Sequence record: SRR33789315_141 | Reading direction: 5' to 3' (one strand) | DNA: 18,787 nucleotides | Part shown: piece after piece, positions 1-16,397 of the stretch | Layout: the number at the start of each line of letters is the position of its first letter | Numbering within the stretch: the first letter of the stretch is position 1 | Translations under genes and position numbers: made by a program | The notes under the pieces: model-generated | Told to the model about the DNA's origin: nothing | Database searches by the model: none | The model's input: only the letters and a program-made list of their open reading frames with translations

Positions 1-798
1 GTATAAACCAGAGCCTGCTGCCAGCTCAGTTACACTTGGGTCTTTTTTTGTCAGATGAAGACTTCCAGTACCGCCGCCGTTAACAAAGGCTAATTGATGA
101 CCATAGGACTCACAAAGTTTAGTCATCGATACGCGTTTTTGAATAACTTGTCTCATTGAAGATTTCTTTAGGAAGCGGATGATAGGATTTAACATTTTCT
201 TGAATGGATTGTTGTCACCTACTCCGGCTATTTGAGCTTCATAGCCCATCACACCTTTTAAATTAAGGTGGTGACAATTTTTTAACAACTCTAGGCGATC
301 TTTCAGAATAGCTTCATCTTTTAAAGATGAGCGATAAACACCAAAGTAAATTCCAAAATGCGACGTTGATAGATCAATATCAAAACAAATATTGATTTTA
401 GTATTTAATCTTTTGGCCATTTCTTCGATGATCTCTAAATGTTCTCTTCGATCAACCATGAAGGTGATCTCATCCCATTCTTTTTTTACCGAAGTTTGCT
501 GATCAAACCAGCGCAGATAAGGATAGCCTACAACAATATCCTTAAGACCTTGTCCTGCCAGCCACTCGGCTTCATCAGGATGAAAGGCTAGTATTCCTTG
601 AAAAATTTCTGAATGGTTTTTAAGGAGTTCCTCAATGACGTAACGACAGCGAATCGATTTACTGGCGATTCTAATTTTTAAAGGCGATGCCATCGCTTTG
701 AGTTGAGCTATATTTTTTTCCAACCTATCCATATCGAGCCAAGCCAATGGCAGTGACTCATTCTCAATAAGTTTTTTAATAGCAGTATTTGTCGTCAT
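1..798 (-). CDS. Fold-type III PLP-dependent enzyme, D-threonine aldolase/D-serine dehydratase (DSD1)-like amino acid deaminase/aldolase; 3' end runs off the window
   Basis: Not in the ORF track; translated by hand from ATG 798: MTTNTAIKKLIENESLPLAWLDMDRLEKNIAQL...IRIASKSIRC (PLP Lys)...GVMGYEAQIAG...FVNGGGTGS...VTELAAGSGLY, 266 open codons to position 1. Motifs match the alanine-racemase-like DSD/D-TA subfamily. Confidence 0.88.
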   Translation of the reverse strand, partial: MTTNTAIKKLIENESLPLAWLDMDRLEKNIAQLKAMASPLKIRIASKSIRCRYVIEELLKNHSEIFQGILAFHPDEAEWLAGQGLKDIVVGYPYLRWFDQQTSVKKEWDEITFMVDRREHLEIIEEMAKRLNTKINICFDIDLSTSHFGIYFGVYRSSLKDEAILKDRLELLKNCHHLNLKGVMGYEAQIAGVGDNNPFKKMLNPIIRFLKKSSMRQVIQKRVSMTKLCESYGHQLAFVNGGGTGSLHLTKKDPSVTELAAGSGLY

Positions 799-804
799 GC
801 CGCT

Positions 805-833
805 ATTTTAAGAGAGGTGAGGTGTTAAATCCA
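805..833 (-). promoter_or_regulatory. Putative sigma-70 promoter for the PLP enzyme, possibly leaderless
   Basis: Minus strand TGGATT-N17-TAAAAT, then 6 nt (agcggc) and ATG 798; no Shine-Dalgarno visible. Confidence 0.4.
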
Positions 834-879
834 TTATTGATAATAATGCAGACGCATATACTCTGGTATAGTTCTTCCC

Positions 880-909
880 TTGGCTTGTTAGATAAAGCAA
901 TCTTATAAT
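880..909 (+). promoter_or_regulatory. Putative sigma-70 promoter for the ceramidase
   Basis: TTGGCT(880-885)-N18-TATAAT(904-909), upstream of AAGGAG and ATG 936. Confidence 0.5.
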
Positions 910-935
910 CTGCTAGCTATATGAAGGAGTGTTTG

Positions 936-2669
936 ATGTCAGATCATCAATGGTTAGTAGGTGCTGCTAAAGCCGATATTACAGCGTTTATTCCTGGCAT
1001 TGTGATGCTTGGTTACGGTAATCCACATAACACTGTGAAATACGTTCACGCACCCTTAAATGCTCGGGTCATTTGGATTGAATCTCGCAAATCTAAAGAA
1101 GTCTCTTTAATGCTTTGCTTAGAAGTCTGTTTTATAACTCAAGCCTTAACTGACTCGCTTTGGGAATTGATATCAAAAAAGTATCCTAACTTAAAACGTG
1201 ATCAAGTCATTATTACGGCACAGCATACTCATTCGGCTCCGTCTGGCTATAGTCATTATGCGCTTTATAGTATGCCGACTCCTGGCTTTTCTCAGCAGGT
1301 CCTAGATATTTTAGTCCTTGGCTGCTTTAAAGCGATAGAGCAAGCTTTCCAAAATAAACGTCCAAGTAAAATTCTCTATAAAGAAGGCCAAGTTCCATTT
1401 GATGCCGACGTGAGCTTTAATCGCTCACTTCGTGCTTATAATTTAAATCCCGAAGTTAAAACTCCATATACTAAGAAGGAGCAGTCCAAGGCAACTGATC
1501 GAACAATGCGATTACTTGAATTTGTTGATGCGCATGGGCCGTTCGCTTCATGGAATTGGTTTGCCGTTCATTGCACTAATATCATTTGGACCAATCACCA
1601 TATCTCACCTGGCAATAAAGGTTATGCGGCGACATACTTAGAAGCCGATCAATCTAAGCTACACGGTCGATCCGAGTATATAGGAGTCTTTGCGCAAGGA
1701 AACTCCGGTGATGTTTCTCCTATTCAAGAGCCACCTTTTTGGGCCCACTGGTTTAAACAACCAGACTTAAAAATGATTACTAAAGCCAAAGAAAATGGTC
1801 TTAAGCAATTTTCATGGGCCAAGAAATTTTTAACTCAAGATGGAATTGAGATCGAAGGAGAAATTGACGGGGAGCTGATCTATGTCGATTTTTCTAATAT
1901 AGAGATCGAAAAATCTCGCCTGGATGGTAAGACTTCATTTGCTTCAACTTCTCCAGCATGTTTAGGTGTTTCCTTTGCTGAAGGAGCTGAGAATGCTGGC
2001 ATCATAGATCCGATTAAATACTTTGCTCGTTTTGTCGCCAACACAATCAAAGTATGGGAATTTGCCATTATGCCTTTGCGCTCAAAGGAATGGGGCAAAC
2101 GGATTCGCTTAAAATATTCAACGCAAAAGCCGAAGCATATTTTTGTTGAAACCGGTGAAAAGAAAGTTTTGGGTACGACTCAAATTATGAGCTTAATTAT
2201 TCCAGGCTGGATTGATAAAAGTATTGGCTATTTTAAACGTATTCACCGTCAAGGTGGTGTTCATGAACACACTTGGACTCAACATGTTTTACCATTATCA
2301 ATTATACGAATTGGCTCACTATCTATGGTGAATATCCCCGCTGAGCCAACCACTATGGCCGGCAAAAGAATTAAAGAGGAACTGACTCAAATCTTAGGTG
2401 GTCAAGTTGTATTATCCCCTTATTCATTAGCTTATTGTGGTTATTTAACAACACCCGAAGAGTACGAAGCCCAATGTTATGAAGGGGGACATACCGTCTT
2501 TGGTAAATGGACCCTTCCAGCTTTTCAGCAAAATATAGTGCGACTCGCCAAAGAGTTAGCGGTTGCTAAAAACCAGAGGGTTTTAGACAAGAGTTTGCAA
2601 CCTCCTCAATTTACGAAGTATGAATTATCTATTCGAAGTTTTGAAACACCAGCTCTTGACCAGCACTGA
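936..2669 (+). CDS. Neutral/alkaline non-lysosomal ceramidase, catalytic N-terminal domain; no signal peptide and no C-terminal Ig-like domain evident
   Basis: Family motifs G-x-A-K-A-D-I-T, MLGYG, HTHSAP, NRS, FAVHCT, NKGYA, GDVSP, PAEPTTMAG, GYLTTPEEY, QCYEGGHT. Start moved from 921 to 936 because AAGGAG (924-929) is an SD for ATG 936. Confidence 0.9.
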   Translation: MSDHQWLVGAAKADITAFIPGIVMLGYGNPHNTVKYVHAPLNARVIWIESRKSKEVSLMLCLEVCFITQALTDSLWELISKKYPNLKRDQVIITAQHTHSAPSGYSHYALYSMPTPGFSQQVLDILVLGCFKAIEQAFQNKRPSKILYKEGQVPFDADVSFNRSLRAYNLNPEVKTPYTKKEQSKATDRTMRLLEFVDAHGPFASWNWFAVHCTNIIWTNHHISPGNKGYAATYLEADQSKLHGRSEYIGVFAQGNSGDVSPIQEPPFWAHWFKQPDLKMITKAKENGLKQFSWAKKFLTQDGIEIEGEIDGELIYVDFSNIEIEKSRLDGKTSFASTSPACLGVSFAEGAENAGIIDPIKYFARFVANTIKVWEFAIMPLRSKEWGKRIRLKYSTQKPKHIFVETGEKKVLGTTQIMSLIIPGWIDKSIGYFKRIHRQGGVHEHTWTQHVLPLSIIRIGSLSMVNIPAEPTTMAGKRIKEELTQILGGQVVLSPYSLAYCGYLTTPEEYEAQCYEGGHTVFGKWTLPAFQQNIVRLAKELAVAKNQRVLDKSLQPPQFTKYELSIRSFETPALDQH

Positions 2670-4105: not shown

Positions 4106-5137
4106 TTATTCGCGTGCGCTGTCATGTTGAAAAATATAAAGACCTTCTTCAATTGAGCTAGCTAAAATTTTTCCTGATTTAAAGAAGGGAAAAGCTCCCC
4201 AAACAGATACAAATCCTGTTTGTGAACGTTCACCTTCTTGCCAAAAAGCGACTTCGTTCATCGATGCAGGGTTACTGACGTCGTAGATACGAAGACCTGA
4301 GCCATAGTGTGATACAAAAGCATAATCACCCTTGATATGAACATTGTGAGCAAGTGAGCCTGGTGCTAAAATTTCACCAACTTTTTGTACACTTCTAAGA
4401 TCACTGAGATCAAACATCTTCATGGTCTTGCCGCTATTTTCTTCAGTCGTCATGAGGTAGCGGTTATCAGTTGTAGGCCATGCATTGTGAACATAACCCG
4501 CTCGTTGAATTTGAAAACGCTTAACTAGAGTAGGATTGGCAGGATCATCGTAGTTAAAAATTCCGATTGTTCCGTGTCCACCCTCAGATACATAAACGAG
4601 TCCATCTCTAGCAAAAATGTCGTGACATTCAACTCCAAGAAAAGAAAGTTTAGTTGGTGCTAGTGGGTTTTCTAATGAATAAAGTTTTACAGGCTGGGCA
4701 TGATCGCCTTCAGCAAATAAAATTTTACGTTCTGTATCGATCCATAAATTATGTGAAGTTGAAAAATCGGTGAAGGTTGTTGCTAGTGTCGCAACTTCCG
4801 GAAGCTTTGAAAGATCAATGATTTGCATCCCGCCGCCTGACTCGTTGACGACATAGGCATAATGACCAAGAGTTTTAATATCTTTCCATGTCGATCGATT
4901 CGAAGGAATGAATGAGATTTCTTTTGGTGATGAAGCATCAGTAATATCAATAATTGCTGTGCCGTCAACAACACCAAGCAAGGCGTATTCTCTTTGGTCT
5001 GGTGAGGTATAGCCCCAGACATCATTGTATTCTATATTTCTATCGTATTTAAATTTTGCTAGGGGAGTTAGTCGTTGTGATGCCTCCGCGCCAAGAGATA
5101 GTAACAACACCACTACAGTCAGTAACAGTACCTTCAT
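4106..5137 (-). CDS. Choice-of-anchor B family / LVIVD-repeat beta-propeller, secreted
   Basis: Signal peptide; NDVWGY...REYALLG...GTAIIDIT, WKDIK, YAYVVNE...GMQIIDLS, SHN, CHD, YVHNAW, AHN, SHYGSGLRIYDVSNP, WGAFPFF-SG typical of this family; no C-terminal sorting domain. Confidence 0.88.
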   Translation of the reverse strand: MKVLLLTVVVLLLSLGAEASQRLTPLAKFKYDRNIEYNDVWGYTSPDQREYALLGVVDGTAIIDITDASSPKEISFIPSNRSTWKDIKTLGHYAYVVNESGGGMQIIDLSKLPEVATLATTFTDFSTSHNLWIDTERKILFAEGDHAQPVKLYSLENPLAPTKLSFLGVECHDIFARDGLVYVSEGGHGTIGIFNYDDPANPTLVKRFQIQRAGYVHNAWPTTDNRYLMTTEENSGKTMKMFDLSDLRSVQKVGEILAPGSLAHNVHIKGDYAFVSHYGSGLRIYDVSNPASMNEVAFWQEGERSQTGFVSVWGAFPFFKSGKILASSIEEGLYIFQHDSARE

Positions 5138-5271: not shown

Positions 5272-6585
5272 TTACTCTGCGGAAAGAATCTGATAAGCAC
5301 CTTGTACATTTAGTTTACCACCGCTTACTGTTTTGCCGCGAAGGCTTGGCAGTTTTTCACTACCATCGAGCAATGCTTGTTTTACACGTAAAGCTGTGGC
5401 CGCTGGATTTGCTTTAGCAGCATCGCCTAATCCATCAACAGCTGCATAAAGTAGAGCAATTGTTCCAGCAACATGTGGCGTGGACATTGAAGTTCCAGTC
5501 AATGATCCAGTTCTATTACCTGGAAGAGTAGATAAAATATCTGTTCCAGGTGCAGCCAGATCAATACCGACGGCACCATAACCTGAATATTGATATTTTT
5601 CATTATCGATAGTCGTGTTTGTAACTGTGACTAGATAAGGACTTGTACATCCTGTAGGTACATCACCCATTTTATCGATATCTACTTGATCATTGATTGT
5701 GGCAGCTGCTGATAAAATTCCAGCTTCTCCCATGGCAGTATAAACATCATTCCAAAGTCTATAGTCACCACTATCACAACGAGCGCGATCAACGCCAAAA
5801 CTTGAGTTTGTTACTACAACATTGGCACCTTTTGAGCCGTTACTATCTAGCCAAAGTTGTTTTTGAGCTAGTACGTAACCATATCCTTCAAGTACAACTG
5901 ATGTTGTTGAAGAAGAAGCTCCGACACCCATAATTTTGACGTTCCAATTAACACCAGCAACATCACGACCATTATCGCCACGAGCGCCAACGATGCCCGC
6001 TACATGAGTTCCATGTCTTGAAGCAATTAAATCACCATTTGATTGGTAAGCGTTCCAGCCGTGAACATCATCAATATAACCATTATTATCGTCATCAATT
6101 CCATTGCCTGGTATTTCTCTGGTGTTAGTCCAAATATTTTGCTTTAGATCAGCATGTGATACATCAACGCCTTCATCGACAACAGCGACCACATAATCGT
6201 GTGAGCCAACACTTTTTTGCCATACATTTTCAATATTAATATCTGCGCCGTTGTTTTGACGGGCCATGCTCCACTGCGCAGAAAAATCAGGATCATTTGG
6301 CTGCTTTGCTTTTCTAAGACTAACTTCTTCTTCGTAAGTTATAGAATCAATTCCACTAAAACTTTTTAAAGACTGAATTGATTCAAATCCCTGTGGTGCT
6401 TCAACTAGGTAAATGCCAAGTGCGGGAATAACAGCTTTGATAACTGAAAATCCATTATCTTCTAAAGACTCAACAGTCATATTTTTTTGTAATTTTATAA
6501 CAAATTGACCAGGTATTCTTTCGGCGCGAACGTTAGTGGCAAAAGCCATGAGCGCAAGCAGTGCTAAACTAGCAGGTATATTCAC
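5272..6585 (-). CDS. Secreted S8 (subtilisin-like) serine peptidase with propeptide
   Basis: GTG start with SD AAGGAG; signal peptide; triad VAVVDEG / HGTHVAG / GTSMSTPHVAG; IPGNGIDDDNNGYIDDVHGWN insertion; IDLAAPG. Confidence 0.95.
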   Translation of the reverse strand: MNIPASLALLALMAFATNVRAERIPGQFVIKLQKNMTVESLEDNGFSVIKAVIPALGIYLVEAPQGFESIQSLKSFSGIDSITYEEEVSLRKAKQPNDPDFSAQWSMARQNNGADINIENVWQKSVGSHDYVVAVVDEGVDVSHADLKQNIWTNTREIPGNGIDDDNNGYIDDVHGWNAYQSNGDLIASRHGTHVAGIVGARGDNGRDVAGVNWNVKIMGVGASSSTTSVVLEGYGYVLAQKQLWLDSNGSKGANVVVTNSSFGVDRARCDSGDYRLWNDVYTAMGEAGILSAAATINDQVDIDKMGDVPTGCTSPYLVTVTNTTIDNEKYQYSGYGAVGIDLAAPGTDILSTLPGNRTGSLTGTSMSTPHVAGTIALLYAAVDGLGDAAKANPAATALRVKQALLDGSEKLPSLRGKTVSGGKLNVQGAYQILSAE

Positions 6586-6736: not shown

Positions 6737-7315
6737 TTAGATATCTAGTGGCAGGGAAACCGATAGCATTACTTGGTTATAGTCAATTTCACTATTTCCT
6801 GAAAGTGTAGACTTTAGTCCAGATGAGTTGTCTTTGAATTCATCAAAAGTCATCATTCTATATTCAAGGTTTAAGCTTACAAAAGGAAGTCCTGTAAAGC
6901 CAACACCCAGACCATAGCCACTTCCGTTATACTCGTCACCAATTGATGCTCCACTTTGGATCTCGATTGATGTGCTCATATAGTATGCGGCCCAAGCACG
7001 AAGCATGACCGGCAAGTTGTAACCTACAAAAAGTCCAAATGTGCTTTGGTCAGCATCCTGTTTGAAAGTCGTAGTTCCTGACTTTGTTTCAAAATCAGAC
7101 TCTGAACCCATAGTGTAATCAATACCAAACATTAGACCAAGTGTTTGATAGCCAAGTCGTGCACCTAAAAAGGGAGAGTTTTGATCATATTCAGTTTTTA
7201 CAGATGCACTATTTTCACCAGAGCCGATGCTATAACCTAAATAGGGTTCGATGAGAAAGCCTGCTTGAGCACTAGAAGCCGATAGAATTAAGAATAGACA
7301 TAGTATTTTCTTCAT
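6737..7315 (-). CDS. Small outer-membrane beta-barrel protein (OmpA/OmpW-like, about 8 strands)
   Basis: Start moved to ATG 7315 (SD GGAGG); signal MKKILCLFLILSASSAQA; amphipathic strands GFLIEPYLGY, GARLGY, GYGLGVGF, VSLNLEYR and terminal MLSVSLPLDI. Confidence 0.85.
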   Translation of the reverse strand: MKKILCLFLILSASSAQAGFLIEPYLGYSIGSGENSASVKTEYDQNSPFLGARLGYQTLGLMFGIDYTMGSESDFETKSGTTTFKQDADQSTFGLFVGYNLPVMLRAWAAYYMSTSIEIQSGASIGDEYNGSGYGLGVGFTGLPFVSLNLEYRMMTFDEFKDNSSGLKSTLSGNSEIDYNQVMLSVSLPLDI

Positions 7316-7426
7316 AGGTTCCTCCATGATTTGAGTTAGGTGCAATTCCATTGTCCCGCTTCCACTATGACATATCAAGTGAAAGCTTCAATATAGGTTT
7401 GTAATATAGAAAGGGGTGTCTAGAAT

Positions 7427-10333: not shown

Positions 10334-10855
10334 ATGCGTTTAGCCTTAGCTATTTTAGTCTCTTTATTTTTATCAGTTGTTCAAGCCCAAGAGCCTGTTT
10401 TGACTTTAACTCAGCAGCGTTCACAAAAAATTCGTGAAGTTTTTAATAATCTTAGAGCCACTAATACTGAGATTCTTGATAATTTCTATACTCAAGACAT
10501 TGTTTTCGAAGATCCACTAGGTCAAATCAACGGCCTTAATGCCATGAAAGAATACTACAAGGCGATGTATAAAAAAGTTATAGATATTCGCTTTGAATTT
10601 AAAGAGGATGCCATCAATGTTGATCGCCATCTGTGTACATGGATTATGTACATGCGTGTGGAAGGTTTAAATGGTGGCGACGAGGTCGTTGTTCACGGTG
10701 TAAGTGAAATCGAATTTAATAGTGAAGGCGTTCTTGCTATTTATCATCGTGATTATTTTGATATGGGAGAGTTTATTTATCAGCATATCCCAGTCCTAGG
10801 TTCGATTATTAAAATGGTAAGAAAACAGCTCGAACATAAGCCATCAGGGAATTAA
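10334..10855 (+). CDS. NTF2/SnoaL-like domain protein with N-terminal signal peptide
   Basis: SD AAGGAG; signal MRLALAILVSLFLSVVQA; FYTQDIVFEDP...GL...YY, HRDYFDMGEFIYQHIPVLG. Confidence 0.85.
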   Translation: MRLALAILVSLFLSVVQAQEPVLTLTQQRSQKIREVFNNLRATNTEILDNFYTQDIVFEDPLGQINGLNAMKEYYKAMYKKVIDIRFEFKEDAINVDRHLCTWIMYMRVEGLNGGDEVVVHGVSEIEFNSEGVLAIYHRDYFDMGEFIYQHIPVLGSIIKMVRKQLEHKPSGN

Positions 10856-12016
10856 ACCAAGCTTTTGATATTCACTTGCTATAAGAGATTTAGTTTTTTC
10901 ATGGCGAGTGATTTCTCCGTGAGCATCACTGCCAAGATCCTTAGAGATAAATTGATTAATATCAGCGTTATGAATGGGACTGCCATGGATTCCAAACTTC
11001 ACTGGTCCTTTTAGTCCATCGGTATCAACATTTTGATAGACGTTAACACTTCTTGAAACATTGTCTGGTTTGTACAATGTATTTGGCTGACGTCTGGTCC
11101 AAACATTAGGAGGTTTAATTTCAACATCATCAACGAATGGAATAGCGTTATAGATCTCTCGATTAGTATTGCCTGCTATTTGCGAAAGAACTTCTCCAAC
11201 CGCCAAGTGAGCTTCTTTAACTGGATCAATGGTGAGCATTAGGTCAACTTTATCTTCAGGAAATAGCGATTTCATATTTTCTAAAAATTTTACGCTTGAA
11301 CGAGCGCCGCTACTATGACCTTGAATAACAATCTTTGGTGTTATTCCTAATTCTTTGGCACTTTGTCTATAATCTCTATAACAAAGCAATGCTCTATAAA
11401 CTCCACGTGGGAAGATTTGTGAGCTAACAGAGCTATAGCTACTTAGTTCTTTAGGATTGCCTAAAACTTCTGACTCTTCTGAAGCAAATGTAGTCCACCC
11501 AATATTGCTAGAGTCAGCACTCATTGCTAATTGATTTAATGGCCCTGCGGAAAGCGCTGACCAGTTTTCGCTTTGATTATAGGTTTCTTTAACAGCTTGT
11601 ATGGCATGGTAATGAAGGTTTTTACCTAAATCACCATCTCCAACACAGCCCATGAATGTTTTCATTAAGTCTGTTGTCTTTGGCGAGAAAGACCCAGTTC
11701 CTTCAAAATTAATAACAAATGCTTTTTGATTAGCTTTAGCTTTGCAGTTGTTGAGCTTGTCACCAATTTGATGCCTGTTAAGTTGCGAAGTATCGCCTAA
11801 ATTTAGCTTTTGTTGGACTGCCAATGTCTTTAGCATTTCTTTCGCTGACTGCTTTGAAATTGGTCTTGAAATGTTGGCGCAATCTATAAGTGGAGTTGTT
11901 GCAATAATATTTTGGAGGTTATTGATAGAAACATTGCTAACAACCTGTTGTTCACAAAGCTCAGAAGTGTAGCCTGAGTAGTTGATAAATATAGTTAAGA
12001 AAAAAATTTTTTTCAC
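10844..12016 (-). CDS. Secreted alpha/beta-hydrolase-fold protein (putative lipase/esterase)
   Basis: GTG start with signal-like N-terminus; FVINFEGTG, nucleophile elbow IVIQGHSSGA, LMLTIDPV, VNVYQ, C-terminal DAHGEI. Confidence 0.65.
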   Translation of the reverse strand: MKKIFFLTIFINYSGYTSELCEQQVVSNVSINNLQNIIATTPLIDCANISRPISKQSAKEMLKTLAVQQKLNLGDTSQLNRHQIGDKLNNCKAKANQKAFVINFEGTGSFSPKTTDLMKTFMGCVGDGDLGKNLHYHAIQAVKETYNQSENWSALSAGPLNQLAMSADSSNIGWTTFASEESEVLGNPKELSSYSSVSSQIFPRGVYRALLCYRDYRQSAKELGITPKIVIQGHSSGARSSVKFLENMKSLFPEDKVDLMLTIDPVKEAHLAVGEVLSQIAGNTNREIYNAIPFVDDVEIKPPNVWTRRQPNTLYKPDNVSRSVNVYQNVDTDGLKGPVKFGIHGSPIHNADINQFISKDLGSDAHGEITRHEKTKSLIASEYQKLGLIP

Positions 12017-12055: not shown

Positions 12056-13882
12056 ATGAAATTTTTATATCTTTTATTATCATTTTTTAGTGTCTCACTA
12101 TTTGCTCAGGATCCTTATCAGGATTTTAATGAAGGATTTAGGCAAATTGGCGAAGTTTTTTTAATTGCTTCTGGAGACGTTGATGCTCTAACTTTAGCCC
12201 GTTCACCTATCGTAGAGCCTTGTAGAGAGAACTCATTTGAACGAGATGAGCCTCAAGCCGTAGACCTAGGAATTACTCCTGAGGATAGCGAGGAGAGTCT
12301 TTGGCGTTTTTCAGTCATGATGACGATGGGTGGACCAAGAGATGGTTTGGCAAAAAATTATGCTCAAAAAGATGAGCGCTACCGCGAAATGGGCGGTGTT
12401 GTTGATGAGCTTATTCTAAGCAATTATAACTCCCATGAAGCGCGCATGAATGCAGTCACAGCAGCTTGTGCAGGTAAAAGTGAACACGATAAAATCGCAA
12501 TGGCGTCGAATCTTGGTGGAAGATTGTCATCCATCTATGACTATGACCGAATCGATAGTGGGCCAAATGTTGATATGGTCGTGAGTTCTCAAAACCAATG
12601 GGATGCTTTAAGAGACAGGGCCAATGGAAATATGCAGGCAACTTCTGGTGTTTGTCGGGATGCCTCTTTAACGGTATCCCAGTTTTTGATAGCCTGTGGT
12701 TTTAAAAATAACCAAGTCTCTATTGAAGGTTATAGAACCGTCGGTGGCGGCCATCAGGTGACTTCTGTTCGAACGAGTGATGGGGAAGTCTATACCATTA
12801 ACTGGAGTGAACTTTACTCCTCAGATGAAAGCGCAAACGCCAATCCTGCGCCAAATCCAAATCTAATCAATTCAGGATTATATTATACAGTGTACGATCC
12901 AGAAACTGGTGAGGTTCGTGAAAGTCGCCGTACTGAACTTGGTGAGGTTTTAAAAAGTGTAACTGGTGGCACTCCAGATGATCCCAATTATTTACCTGGT
13001 TTAATCAAGCTTGAAGCAGGTTATGGAGTCATTAGCGCCAATCTTTTTACAACGGAAACGGCACGTGGAGATATTGCTCAAGGTATTGCGACATATATTC
13101 AGCAGGACAATATTTTTGGTATTTTAGATATTAGTGCTGGAGTTGCTTTTGCTCATAATGAAAGAACTGTAGCAACCTCGCCAACAAGAGAGGCTGAACT
13201 TTCGCAAAATATTGTTTACGCTCAAATTGAGGGCAGATTTAATATTCCAGATCTGATGCTTGTAAATAGAGAAAACCAAAGCCTAGCCTTAAGACCAAGT
13301 GCGATGGTTTCAACTGAAGGATATTACTCCAGTTCAAGAGTAGGAAATACAACACCTGAGGCTAACGGGGATATGTTTACCCAAGCAACAGTAGGTCTTG
13401 ATGCACTTTATAATAATGGCAGAGTAGGTGCTTTTGTTGGTGGAGAAGTTGAATATAATCTTCAGCAAGGTCGATATAATAATGAACGAGGCACACCTGG
13501 ACAAGATGGTTCATCTGGTGGAATTCATGCCTTTGCCAATAGTTATAATGTACATGGTGGCCTGTCTTACGATGGTGAGCGCTTTACGACAGCTCTAACC
13601 GGTGAGTATACAATAGCCCGATCTGGTTCTGTTAGCTCTATTGGAGCGAGCGTCATGGACCATCAAAGCAACGCAAGTGGTTCTGCAGTTTACAGTGTCT
13701 ATAATAGAAATTATGGTACTAGAGAAGATTTTATTATTTTAAGAGCAGAGCGAGATTTTGAGATTCAACGAATGGGTACAGTTAATATTGGCTTAGAATC
13801 TAGATTGCCAGTTGCTAACGACTTTAATCAAGCCACCGTCGGTCTTTCGCTTCGTTTTGTTCCATCGCGCCCTCGTCGCTAA
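12056..13882 (+). CDS. Secreted protein with an N-terminal transglutaminase-like (papain-fold) domain and a C-terminal putative outer-membrane beta-barrel
   Basis: SD GAGGT; signal MKFLYLLLSFFSVSLFA; GVCRDASLTVSQFLIACG (C200), GGGHQVTSV (H233), YTINW (N249); C-terminal ~290 aa of alternating amphipathic strands ending ATVGLSLRF. Confidence 0.6.
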   Translation: MKFLYLLLSFFSVSLFAQDPYQDFNEGFRQIGEVFLIASGDVDALTLARSPIVEPCRENSFERDEPQAVDLGITPEDSEESLWRFSVMMTMGGPRDGLAKNYAQKDERYREMGGVVDELILSNYNSHEARMNAVTAACAGKSEHDKIAMASNLGGRLSSIYDYDRIDSGPNVDMVVSSQNQWDALRDRANGNMQATSGVCRDASLTVSQFLIACGFKNNQVSIEGYRTVGGGHQVTSVRTSDGEVYTINWSELYSSDESANANPAPNPNLINSGLYYTVYDPETGEVRESRRTELGEVLKSVTGGTPDDPNYLPGLIKLEAGYGVISANLFTTETARGDIAQGIATYIQQDNIFGILDISAGVAFAHNERTVATSPTREAELSQNIVYAQIEGRFNIPDLMLVNRENQSLALRPSAMVSTEGYYSSSRVGNTTPEANGDMFTQATVGLDALYNNGRVGAFVGGEVEYNLQQGRYNNERGTPGQDGSSGGIHAFANSYNVHGGLSYDGERFTTALTGEYTIARSGSVSSIGASVMDHQSNASGSAVYSVYNRNYGTREDFIILRAERDFEIQRMGTVNIGLESRLPVANDFNQATVGLSLRFVPSRPRR

Positions 13883-13891
13883 AGGTTTAAT

Positions 13892-14500
13892 ATGAAATTA
13901 TCTCTATTGGTTCTTGCCCTGTTTTTGGTCAGTTCTTGTGCGAGTAAAAATCTAAATCTGGTCGATGAAAACCTTTCACCGCTTGAAGAGTTTTCAAAAG
14001 TTACGATGGTAGAGTCTAGTCCACTTTCTTTTAAGATTAATAATGTAACAGATAAACGTGCCGTTAAAGATCGTGTCGGAATGGGTCGTACAGGCTTGTC
14101 CAACAGAGTGACTCCAATCATTGTTTCCACTGGAGTTGAGTTCTACGTTAAAACAAGTCTTGAACAAGGCTTAAGTGCGCGTGAAGTCCAGGTTGACGAA
14201 AATTCTTTGAATAACTTAAACGTAGATATTCTTGAGCTGTGGGTAGAAGAAAAGAAAGATGGAAATATCGGTGAAGTTTCTGAATGTAAGTTGAAATTTG
14301 CTTTTGATTTACAACTTGCAGATAACCTTAAAGCTAAATGGAATGGTATTGTTGCCGTAAGTGCTGCTTCTAATGGTTCAATTTTAGATGCAACAGCACT
14401 TAATCCTCGGATGATTTCTTCATGCATGAATGAGGCTTTGGAAAAATTTGTCCAGGATAAAGATTTTCAACGAATGTTTAGATTAAAAATTAGAAAATAA
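13892..14500 (+). CDS. Lipoprotein, YajG-like
   Basis: Lipobox LVSS-C16; VTDKR...VG motif and alpha/beta pattern resembling YajG-family lipoproteins; 9 nt after the upstream stop, so probably co-transcribed. Confidence 0.65.
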   Translation: MKLSLLVLALFLVSSCASKNLNLVDENLSPLEEFSKVTMVESSPLSFKINNVTDKRAVKDRVGMGRTGLSNRVTPIIVSTGVEFYVKTSLEQGLSAREVQVDENSLNNLNVDILELWVEEKKDGNIGEVSECKLKFAFDLQLADNLKAKWNGIVAVSAASNGSILDATALNPRMISSCMNEALEKFVQDKDFQRMFRLKIRK

Positions 14501-16397
14501 TATCTAGGAAATTATAGATATTCATGATGAAGGGGTTGTAGCGATTCTTCTTCACCATTTTTTCTTCACGTTCCCAGTAATTTAAGCTTACAGAATTGTA
14601 GACATATCCAAAGCTATAGCTCGTTGGGTTAGGACTTTTGCGATCAAAAAGATTGGCCTCAGGGTAACGCTCAAATTGATTTTTAAAATCTAACATATAA
14701 AGCTTAGCCGATTCTCTTATACTCGCTGCCTGCATGATAAATTGTTCACGAAGGTGAGATTTCTTCTTATGCCTAAGGGCCAGTCTTGTAAGCCAAGCAT
14801 GCTTTATGCGATCATGTGTAATTGAAATCATGGTTTTAAGTTCTTCAGTCTTAATACAGCTAGGGTCTGGTAGTTCAGATAATGCAAATTTAAGTTTTGC
14901 TAATTCTTCACGAAGAAGTTCAGGGTTTTTCGATAATTCTTTAACAGTATTTCTTTCATGTATTCTATGAGTGCTACTAAATTCGTCTTGAAGATTTGGA
15001 AAAGAGATTACAGAAATGAGCTGGTTCTTTTTAAAATGCTTTGTTTGATAATCAATTATGTTTTTCCAGCAAGCAATGTCTTCACCCAATAGCTTTAAGC
15101 CTGCCATTGGATCAAAATCATGCTTCTTATTTGAAAGTAGAGCAACATTCCAGTCCATCAGCCAGTAACCAACTTCATGTCCTGTAGTGAAATTAAAATG
15201 ACCTTCGACTCCATGTTCGGATAATCTTTTCATATCATCGGCTCGTGCCACCAAATAATCCGTGAGAAATAATGGGACATCCATATCCATAAGAATCCAG
15301 TAACTGGTTTCTGGATAATACCAAGTCGGGCGAATGTTTTTTTGTTCAAGAGTGAATTCTCTCATACTGGAAAAATCTTCGTTACCATACATTGGCACTT
15401 GTTTGTCCCAAAGACCATAGAACATAACAGTGTGGGGAAGGATGCCGACTTCTGGGTGGCTGTATTGAGGTAAGAAGTTAAAGTTTCCATAAAAATCATC
15501 ATTTTGATTTGTGGACACATGTACTTTAATCATTAACTTTTTATTTCGTTGCTCTAATGTTGATCTGGCAGCTTCAATCCAATCGAGCGCAGCTTCATAG
15601 TTCACAGATGTAAATTCACTAGTGCCTGCTTCCATCGTTAAAAAATCAAAATCAACTGCATTCATCAGTTTTTTTAGATTTTTCTTTAATAACTTCTCTG
15701 ACCTTATTCCAGTTACAGCTGAGCTTAAGGGTATGAGTTTGTAGCTATTTTGCTGTTGAAGGGCTGCCCCAATCGAAACTCCAACATTGATACCTAATTC
15801 TTGAGCCAATTTGAATGGCGCTTTTAATCTTCTAGAAATATCCGAAAGCTCATCTCTTAATAGGTTGAGATCCATTACATTTTGACCATTTCGCGCTAAC
15901 CAGCGAACGAGTTCAAAAGCAATCTTTGGCTTCTCCATTAAAAAACCATGAACCCATTCATTAGAGTGCAATGTATGCAAATGGAAGCCACGATGAATAA
16001 ATGAAGGATTCCATTCGAATTGAGAATTACATAAATTTAATACATCAACTTTTTTCGGCGAGATCTGAATTCTTGGGTGTGGAAAAAGAAAGCCCAATTC
16101 TTGCAGGCCTTGATAAAAAGTTGATGCCCACTCACTAGGCTTGGCATAGATTTCAATATTGATTGAATCTTTACTGCAAACAAATTTTCCAAAATTTTGA
16201 GTATTAGATTCTGTGAAAGAGAAATTGATAAAATCCTTTTTTAAATTTGCCTTTGTTAGGATTTCATTAAGATCATTTTTTATTGCAGCTTTATGGGCCA
16301 CACGAGGAGTTACACCTAGGGGAACTTTTGAAAAAACTGCATGCATTTGAAGTGAAAGAAATAAGAATAATAAAATTTTAATTGAAAAGAATTTCAA
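14490..16397 (-). CDS. Large secreted uncharacterised protein; GH20-domain-2-like N-terminus plus putative TIM-barrel hydrolase domain
   Basis: TTG start with SD AGGTG; signal peptide; FYQGLQELGFLFPHP then W-x-P-S-F-x-x-R-G-F-H-L-H, the junction typical of GH20/GH67/GH84-like two-domain enzymes; WLARNGQN; WYYPETSYW. Confidence 0.6.
   Translation of the reverse strand: MKFFSIKILLFLFLSLQMHAVFSKVPLGVTPRVAHKAAIKNDLNEILTKANLKKDFINFSFTESNTQNFGKFVCSKDSINIEIYAKPSEWASTFYQGLQELGFLFPHPRIQISPKKVDVLNLCNSQFEWNPSFIHRGFHLHTLHSNEWVHGFLMEKPKIAFELVRWLARNGQNVMDLNLLRDELSDISRRLKAPFKLAQELGINVGVSIGAALQQQNSYKLIPLSSAVTGIRSEKLLKKNLKKLMNAVDFDFLTMEAGTSEFTSVNYEAALDWIEAARSTLEQRNKKLMIKVHVSTNQNDDFYGNFNFLPQYSHPEVGILPHTVMFYGLWDKQVPMYGNEDFSSMREFTLEQKNIRPTWYYPETSYWILMDMDVPLFLTDYLVARADDMKRLSEHGVEGHFNFTTGHEVGYWLMDWNVALLSNKKHDFDPMAGLKLLGEDIACWKNIIDYQTKHFKKNQLISVISFPNLQDEFSSTHRIHERNTVKELSKNPELLREELAKLKFALSELPDPSCIKTEELKTMISITHDRIKHAWLTRLALRHKKKSHLREQFIMQAASIRESAKLYMLDFKNQFERYPEANLFDRKSPNPTSYSFGYVYNSVSLNYWEREEKMVKKNRYNPFIMNIYNFLDIIF

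Follow-up and report, generated by a model that had tools for sequence, protein, structure and literature searches.

Gene and protein family

The stretch of DNA analyzed here, referred to as the window, comprises 18,787 nucleotides of sequence record SRR33789315_141. On its plus strand, a 608-residue open reading frame (ORF) is open at positions 12056-13882; it starts with ATG and has a GAGG 5-8 bases 5' of the start codon. The encoded protein has a signal-peptide-like N-terminus, an extension, a short amphipathic strand, a domain with a predicted transglutaminase-like fold and a Cys-His-Asn triad, and a C-terminal series of long strands predicted to belong to an outer-membrane β-barrel (Table 1). 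As set out below, the enzyme domain may be held in the first loop of that barrel.

An earlier note on this DNA had described a Sec signal, a transglutaminase-like Cys-His-Asn core, and a C-terminal barrel of ~290 residues. The hydrophobic stretch agrees with the first of these: the N-terminus carries an uncharged run that closes in ...LFAQ and resembles a Sec signal, and by a crude test 102 of the 112 family members aligned below have a comparable run. The motifs that had been quoted are all in place, namely GVCRDA at residues 198-203, LIACG at 211-215, GGGHQV at 230-235, and YTINW at 246-250. The Pro-rich linker TGGTPDDPNYLP is located at residues 303-314, the seven strings read as strands are found between residues 357 and 601, and the tail VPSRPRR is at residues 602-608. 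Hence, the observation itself was confirmed. What had been missed is that a further amphipathic strand precedes the enzyme domain, at residues 83-92, and is built into the barrel by the structure model.

A family search by word index returned 39 proteins of 494-618 residues, and the few that are named are called 'hypothetical protein'. Thirty-four of them, covering close and mid-distance homologues, entered the first alignment; P0003, P0004, P0006, P0013, and P0014 were left out as near-duplicates of retained rows or as coming from short contigs. Its invariant residues include C138, C200, R201, C214, G232, H233, N249, W250, and E252. When 1.84 billion representatives were searched exhaustively with HMMER, 117 proteins were recovered with E ≤1e-3, 55 with E ≤1e-10, and 31 with E ≤1e-30; the distant relatives have 500-730 residues and match chiefly at residues ~126-310. 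Sequences of at least 525 residues from the word-index and HMMER sets were combined into an alignment of 112 (525-727 residues, median 604), which reaches down to ~15-20% identity. The NCBIfam search of the 608-residue protein gave chance-level matches alone, and neither the protein nor the 112-sequence profile had a meaningful match when searched by sequence against the PDB. DUF6588 matches weakly (E 0.048), and does so in 5 of the 34 homologues as well.

Table 1. Features of the barrel gene and its surroundings, with positions in the window
Feature	Position	Strand	Basis or remark
Transglutaminase-like (papain-fold) domain, residues ~100-312	12353..12991	+	Foldseek and VIA-align versus LapG
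Cys200 codon, predicted nucleophile, N-terminus of helix 200-213	12653..12655	+	111/112; DSSP of model
His233 codon, predicted general base, strand 231-239	12752..12754	+	112/112; model
Asn249 codon, predicted third triad residue, end of strand 245-249	12800..12802	+	106 Asn, 5 Asp, 1 Ser; model
Residues 83-92 (WRFSVMMTMG), predicted as strand 1 of the barrel, with a near-invariant Gly-Pro after it	12302..12331	+	Model, alternation
Predicted barrel strands 2-16, residues 315-603	12998..13864	+	15 long strands, pLDDT mostly >90
Cys138 codon, predicted disulfide partner of Cys214	12467..12469	+	Co-occurrence
Cys214 codon, predicted disulfide partner of Cys138	12695..12697	+	Co-occurrence
Basic tail VPSRPRR, particular to the clade, behind Phe601 (last strand), with stop codon	13859..13882	+	Family endings
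Signal peptide, residues 1-18 (MKFLYLLLSFFSVSLFAQ)	12056..12109	+	Putative cleavage after AQ; AQ then DPY kept in close homologues
N-terminal extension, residues 19-82	12110..12301	+	Low model confidence; conserved Cys56; missing from part of family
Conserved perfect inverted repeat TTTTATCGG-N5-CCGATAAAA	12021..12043	+	ATG 13 bases downstream; lies in the 39-bp divergent intergenic gap
YajG-like lipoprotein gene, 202 residues, lipobox LVSSC, PF03923	13892..14500	+	10 bases after barrel-gene stop; E 3.1e-6, 27.4 bits versus 25

Predicted fold and catalytic residues of the enzyme domain

The N-terminal part (residues 19-315) was modeled separately with a predicted local distance difference test score (pLDDT) of 83.7, and the model was compared with solved structures. 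Foldseek placed Legionella LapG first, with an E-value of 2.3e-4, a probability of 1.00, and a target template modeling (TM) score of 0.50; the matches after it are Rad4, transglutaminase 2, CPR-C4, N-acyltransferases, and vasohibins. With VIA-align, LapG was superimposed with a Z-score of 10.4 and a root mean square deviation (rmsd) of 3.9 over 142 aligned residues, and an independent comparison against 48,161 chains gave the same result. Three of those chains reach a Z-score of at least 8: LapG (10.4), S. pyogenes TglA (9.3), and BDI_1141 (8.3). Thirty-six have a Z-score of at least 5, and among the matches listed almost all have transglutaminase-like or related papain-like folds. PF06035 is found below threshold in 25 of the 34 homologues (best E 8.1e-5), and PF04473 is listed in 15 of them. 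Among 71 distant relatives, PF04473 matches 22 at E ≤0.01 and passes its cut-off in three, and the family is therefore tied to the Pfam clan just transitively.

In the full-length model, Cys200 heads the helix of residues 200-213 while His233 and Asn249 lie on neighboring strands, which is the canonical arrangement. Position 200 is Cys in 111 of the 112 aligned sequences and Ala in one, and position 233 is His in all of them. The column of Asn249 holds Asn in 106 sequences, Asp in five, and Ser in one; such an exchange of Asn and Asp is the pattern expected of a third triad residue. All three residues are invariant in the 34 homologues, so conservation among relatives, named in the earlier note as a check on its triad, supports the triad beyond chance, as the match to LapG supports the fold. 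The commonest spacing in the family is 33 residues from Cys to His and 16 from His to Asn. According to an excerpt of PMC4241560, the BTLCP protein HvyA has the triad C192/H226/D241 with a spacing of 34/15, its D241N allele works, and some BTLCPs have a C/H/N triad; Asn as the third residue, which the note had pointed out, is hence no obstacle. Taken together, the models and the alignment give good support to a transglutaminase-fold Cys-His-Asn domain that forms a family of its own, with LapG as its nearest relative of solved structure, and that is not of LapG type.

The cysteines provide information on the compartment. Cys138 and Cys214 are both present in 63 of the 112 sequences, both absent from 49, and never found singly. 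This perfect co-occurrence argues for a disulfide and thus for an oxidizing compartment, which fits an exported protein. Two further columns, 218 and 282 in the numbering of P0001, are subfamily-specific with six Cys each. The N-terminal extension is poorly conserved aside from Cys56 (codon 12221-12223), which is Cys in 79 of the 82 sequences with a residue in that column. Since Cys138 would pair with Cys214 and Cys200 would be the nucleophile, Cys56 is left without a partner; it could belong to a pro-segment or a plug, or form an intermolecular bond.

Predicted barrel and the strand preceding the enzyme domain

The full-length model, which was built on the 112-row alignment, has a mean pLDDT of 89.4 and a predicted TM score of 0.85, and is poor at residues 15-78 alone (pLDDT <50 at residues 15-35, 37-40, and 49-78). 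DSSP assigns 15 long strands to its C-terminal part: residues 315-323, 326-334, 340-353, 357-373, 379-396, 408-429, 435-454, 457-471, 490-506, 510-521, 524-535, 540-551, 556-570, 574-585, and 594-603. For the barrel, Foldseek gave 142 matches at E ≤1e-3, and those listed are outer-membrane barrels, among them LptD, OmpU, FecA, CdiB, FhaC, EspP, FapF, and AlgE. The VIA-align comparison is led by CdiB (Z 16.7, rmsd 4.6, 289 aligned), PelB (16.6), FhaC (16.4), and BcsC (15.9), followed by CymA and PgaA (both 15.6) and a BamA model (15.5). All of these, CymA excepted, we take to be 16-stranded. Ordinary porins score 12-13, which is just 3-4 Z units lower, and no particular barrel family is therefore indicated. 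As a lead, the language-model (atlas) features of residues 313-608 resemble those of outer-membrane barrel families alone. An outer-membrane barrel is thus well supported by the model and its structural matches, and the C-terminal barrel that had been read from the sequence is of the membrane type rather than a soluble sandwich or propeller.

Residues 83-92, located ahead of the enzyme domain, are modeled as a strand with a pLDDT of ~95 in the presence of the barrel; in the model without the barrel they are unstructured, with a pLDDT of 50-60. Among the 105 relatives aligned there, hydrophobic residues occur at a frequency of 0.84 at alternate positions versus 0.19 at those between. In 16 of the 105, at most 30 residues precede this strand, which then stands directly behind the signal peptide as in ordinary outer-membrane proteins. 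Many of the VIA-align barrel alignments start at model residues 69-83 with the target near its own first strand; as end points alone are given for these alignments, we regard their start points as supportive of a first strand, not conclusive. Together with the 15 C-terminal strands, strand 83-92 makes 16, an even count. We infer from the model that strand 1 closes the barrel. An interrupted 1+15 topology, in which strand 1 is followed by the enzyme domain and then by strands 2-16, is on these grounds distinctly probable. A second pair of cysteines gives an independent hint of the modeled strand register: positions 542 and 564 (P0001 numbering) are both Cys in 12 sequences and neither in 100, with none occurring singly, and the model places them about opposite each other on the neighboring antiparallel strands 540-551 and 556-570.

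Proposed topology and alternative readings

We propose that the protein is exported by Sec and inserted into the outer membrane as an interrupted 16-stranded barrel. The signal peptide and a flexible extension of ~60 residues would be followed by strand 1 (83-92), an enzyme domain of ~215 residues (100-312) forming the loop between strands 1 and 2, and strands 2-16 (315-603), which would close the barrel. The β-barrel assembly machinery (BAM) would place the domain at the surface as a giant loop, as proposed for the type Vf proteins Hop/BapA of Helicobacter. There, Cys200, activated by His233 with Asn249 as the orienting residue, would become linked as a thioester to its substrate, a peptide or some other amide, and resolution of the thioester by water would make the enzyme a protease, isopeptidase, or amidase. 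The whole reading, namely a Sec-exported interrupted 16-stranded barrel with a surface cysteine hydrolase in loop 1, has in our estimate a probability of about 0.55. A role in predation is speculation.

The side on which the domain lies can be judged from the connections of the model. As a rule, both termini and the short turns of an outer-membrane barrel are periplasmic, and its long loops are outside. When strand 1 is counted and the C-terminus is periplasmic, the periplasmic connections are residues 324-325, 354-356, 455-456, 507-509, 536-539, and 571-573, each of 2-4 residues, with the connection 397-407 and its short strand 400-405 as the exception. In our reading of the model, the side of the enzyme domain also bears an 18-residue loop (472-489), a loop at 586-593, and polar extensions of the strands within residues 357-454. 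As the domain lies with the long loops and opposite the short turns, it would be extracellular by the usual rule, and we consider its exposure at the surface rather likely.

Several observations weigh against this proposal. For display at the surface, a domain of 215 residues with a predicted disulfide loop of 76 residues must be brought across the outer membrane, whereas a periplasmic placement is more easily explained; intimin is a precedent for the export of a disulfide-bonded domain. The segment 400-405 is a seventeenth, six-residue DSSP strand, which we put in a periplasmic turn by judgment. The Foldseek TM scores to known barrels are low (0.14-0.35), as expected when barrels differ in size. 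No curated cut-off was passed in the Pfam scan of the 608-residue protein, in which the best match was PF06035 (BTLCP) at residues 191-245 with 13.3 bits versus 27. Finally, the last strand, ...VGLSLRF601, is followed by the seven residues VPSRPRR, a tail that had been flagged as atypical for a β-signal. The family endings ease this caveat: 36 of the 112 relatives terminate exactly in Phe, Trp, or Tyr (for example GFGFKF, GGWKF, and VGFQIKW), and among their last 16 residues 76 have a phi-x-phi-x-aromatic motif. We read the tail as an addition peculiar to the clade of the query rather than as evidence against a barrel.

The nearest solved structure, LapG, is a periplasmic protease, and this too speaks for a domain that is tethered by the barrel on the periplasmic side and works, in the manner of LapG or HvyA, on periplasmic or envelope targets such as peptidoglycan-linked proteins, the capsule machinery, or the stub of an adhesin. 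BTLCPs are described with periplasmic or extracytoplasmic targets in the excerpt of PMC4241560, the predicted Cys138-Cys214 disulfide would form in the periplasm, and the enzyme domain is the best-conserved portion of the protein, which is unusual for surface-exposed regions. Against such a placement, a periplasmic N-terminus with residues 83-92 as strand 1 would put the connection between strands 1 and 2 on the far side of the membrane, and the relatives in which strand 1 directly follows the signal peptide point the same way. To fit 16 strands into residues 315-603 alone, the six-residue strand 400-405 would need to span the membrane, and this count would put the 18-residue loop and the strand extensions in the periplasm. 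We hold the periplasmic placement to be unlikely. Far less probable still is an autotransporter like EstA (type Va) or PlpD (type Vd), the comparison drawn in the earlier note, in which the enzyme, as an N-terminal passenger, would pass through a C-terminal barrel complete in itself and might be released afterwards. The enzyme domain does lie upstream of most of the barrel, and the barrels of EspP (E 6.3e-5) and EstA (E 1.1e-4) are among the Foldseek matches; the best matches, however, are 16-stranded barrels, and those of EspP and EstA have 12 strands. The model has no POTRA domain or helical linker, as the linker 303-314 leads straight into strand 315-323, and no autotransporter family is listed in Pfam at E up to 1. 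A conserved amphipathic strand precedes the domain. Since the barrel seems to begin before the enzyme domain, the layout resembles the proposed type Vf, not Va or Vd.

The interrupted barrel might also carry a different chemistry, with the domain acting as a transamidase (cross-linker), deamidase, or acyltransferase that cross-links or modifies, for instance, proteins in the envelope of predator or prey. This fold and triad are also those of transglutaminases, protein glutaminases, arylamine N-acyltransferases, and amide synthases, which match the model with Z-scores of 4.5-7.8, and the excerpt of PMC4241560 discusses the BTLCP domain as possibly transamidating or deamidating. The nearest structures, with Z-scores from 10.4 to 7.9, are in contrast LapG (a protease), TglA, and two entries titled putative proteases, which is a tendency. 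We accordingly give these other activities a low probability, and hydrolase rather than transferase chemistry is somewhat to fairly likely.

Occurrence in Bacteriovoracia

The top genomic matches, at 93%, 86%, 70%, and 65% identity, are metagenome-assembled genomes (MAGs) of uncultured Halobacteriovorax or Bdellovibrionales. In the NCBI taxonomy, Halobacteriovorax belongs to the class Bacteriovoracia of the Bdellovibrionota. The source organism is a Halobacteriovorax-like predator. In the class containing the nearest MAG, 66 of the 201 sampled genomes have a family match and several have two or three, with ORFs of 384-880 residues, mostly 550-720. This conserved single-gene candidate for a surface enzyme, whose exposure would follow from the proposed topology, is thus present in about one in three of the genomes sampled; neither Pfam nor NCBIfam has a model for it, and wherever it is named, it is called hypothetical. 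The protein atlas lead suggests transglutaminase-plus-barrel combinations in other phyla, with clusters in Calditrichota, Ignavibacteriota, and Spirochaetota.

Two of the loci call for separate mention. In locus L013 (1489-3232, genome G122), the homologue is broken into overlapping frames of 383 and 224 residues by a frameshift or an assembly error. In locus L022, that of one distant relative, a gene for a permuted papain-like amidase (568-1401, plus strand; PF05708, C92, E 8.6e-14) precedes the barrel gene on the same strand; a second thiol amidase hence adjoins the first.

Genomic neighborhood

The gap between the barrel gene and its divergent neighbor contains the inverted repeat listed in Table 1. 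It is found in the window and in five related loci, with conserved core arms (ATCGG/CCGAT) around a 5-base spacer that differs among them. Judged by its pattern, the repeat is possibly an operator for a dimeric regulator or a 5' hairpin. A promoter and terminator scan gave sites no more numerous than in shuffles. Seven sequencing runs sharing words were found, none of them listed as RNA, and their word shares were all ≤0.23.

The YajG-like lipoprotein gene downstream is possibly co-transcribed with the barrel gene. Its product has a Cys132/Cys178 pair that is invariant in six sequences. The gene follows the barrel gene in the close-relative loci (L001-L010, six records), where the whole neighborhood is syntenic; tblastn did not find it in 15 more distant loci. 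In 13 of these 15 the neighboring ORFs differ, and a Pfam scan of 14 neighboring ORFs gave unrelated functions. We considered the lipoprotein as a conserved partner and do not claim it as such, given its lack from the distant loci and the unrelated neighbors there. From gene order, the barrel gene is best seen as a stand-alone unit.

The flanking genes on the minus strand (10844-12016, 390 residues; 14490-16397, 635 residues) match no Pfam family at E ≤0.001 and are conserved in order and sequence in related loci, with 64-91% and 71-90% identity, respectively. The window also encodes a neutral ceramidase (921-2669; PF04734, E 6.7e-95), an LVIVD-repeat protein (4106-5137), an S8 subtilase (5272-6585), and a small PF13505 barrel protein (6737-7378) that terminates in ...SLPLDI. 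As exported hydrolases or proteins of the envelope, all four fit what is typical of predator genomes, and none shares an operon with the barrel gene.

Implications

We see the interest of this family mainly in outer-membrane biogenesis. If the topology is true, 'passengers' placed in a loop occur beyond Helicobacter, and both enzymes as cargo and large barrels as carriers are feasible. The topology would then bear on the reality of type Vf as a mode of secretion and on how BAM moves big domains outward, and a folded loop of 215 residues would be a new test case for large extracellular domains that cross the outer membrane. A wider view, which we offer tentatively and at less than even odds, is that predatory Bdellovibrionota have a second, unrelated form of interrupted-barrel display. 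Here, a 16-stranded barrel of pore size would have a disulfide-bonded cysteine hydrolase as its first loop; the enzyme would display itself on its own channel and could cleave prey-derived polypeptides or the prey envelope where an uptake pore opens.

Comparison with known systems

The barrel has its best structural matches in CdiB/FhaC, PelB, BcsC, PgaA, and BamA (Z 15.5-16.7), and in the wider family C-terminal aromatic signals are seen. It differs from them in having no POTRA or TPR domains and no PDB sequence similarity. With the transglutaminase-like superfamily (PF01841, PF04473 DUF553; vasohibins, CPR-C4, TG2/TG3, PeiW/PeiP), the enzyme domain has in common the G-x-C-x-D motif at the helix start and the His and Asp/Asn on the sheet, and many members are matched with Z-scores of 6-8. 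Unlike those members, the query and its close homologues are below every curated cut-off, and the domain is embedded in a barrel.

LapG and the BTLCPs (MEROPS C93, PF06035; PDB 4FGO, 4FGP, 4FGQ, and 4U65) are the closest solved fold to the enzyme domain, and they resemble it in being Sec-exported and in having a Cys-His-Asp/Asn triad with near-identical spacing. According to an excerpt of PMC13090378, LapG-family activity relies on a calcium site of acidic residues flanking the catalytic Cys, which are D316/E318 in DvhG. In the present family, the flanks of the Cys are V/I/L/T and R/G/A/S/H, and none of the 112 sequences has an acidic residue at either flank. Moreover, LapG and the BTLCPs are soluble periplasmic or membrane-tethered, stand-alone proteins of ~200 residues, whereas the domain here lies inside a 608-residue barrel protein. 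Two defining features of LapG, its calcium motif and its existence as a soluble protein on its own, are thus missing, and the enzyme domain is not LapG-type. In the 21 related genomes searched, no canonical PF06035 gene came up at E ≤0.001; among the control genomes there was one match, in Caulobacter.

Within the reach of our literature searches, no account came up of an outer-membrane barrel with a transglutaminase-like domain inside it, judged by titles or abstracts, and no paper linking transglutaminase-like proteins with the Bdellovibrio outer membrane; among the papers listed, none linked transglutaminase with predator genera or an outer-membrane cysteine protease with Halobacteriovorax. 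Papers that speak of an interrupted β-barrel are by title mostly on Helicobacter. The remark that the combination was not recognized as a described family holds for the query's own family.

For the order of its parts, the protein is best compared with the proposed type Vf of Helicobacter pylori Hop/BapA (Coppens et al. 2018). As described in excerpts of PMC6555100 and PMC9289746, a surface domain is there located between strands 1 and 2 of its own barrel; neither terminus carries a passenger, and the 'passenger' is an extended loop. The excerpt of PMC6555100 says that type Vf appears unique to Helicobacter pylori, and its autotransporter status is questioned. Judged by model and sequence pattern, the protein described here has the same order of strand 1, domain, and remaining strands and likewise no terminal passenger. 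It differs in having 16 predicted strands versus eight in the Hop proteins, in carrying a Cys-His-Asn enzyme fold versus adhesins in Helicobacter, and in occurring in Bdellovibrionota versus Helicobacter pylori; in addition, it showed no relation in sequence, as no Helicobacter outer-membrane protein family is listed in its Pfam scan. These differences aside, the nearest known topology to that of the model is the proposed type Vf.

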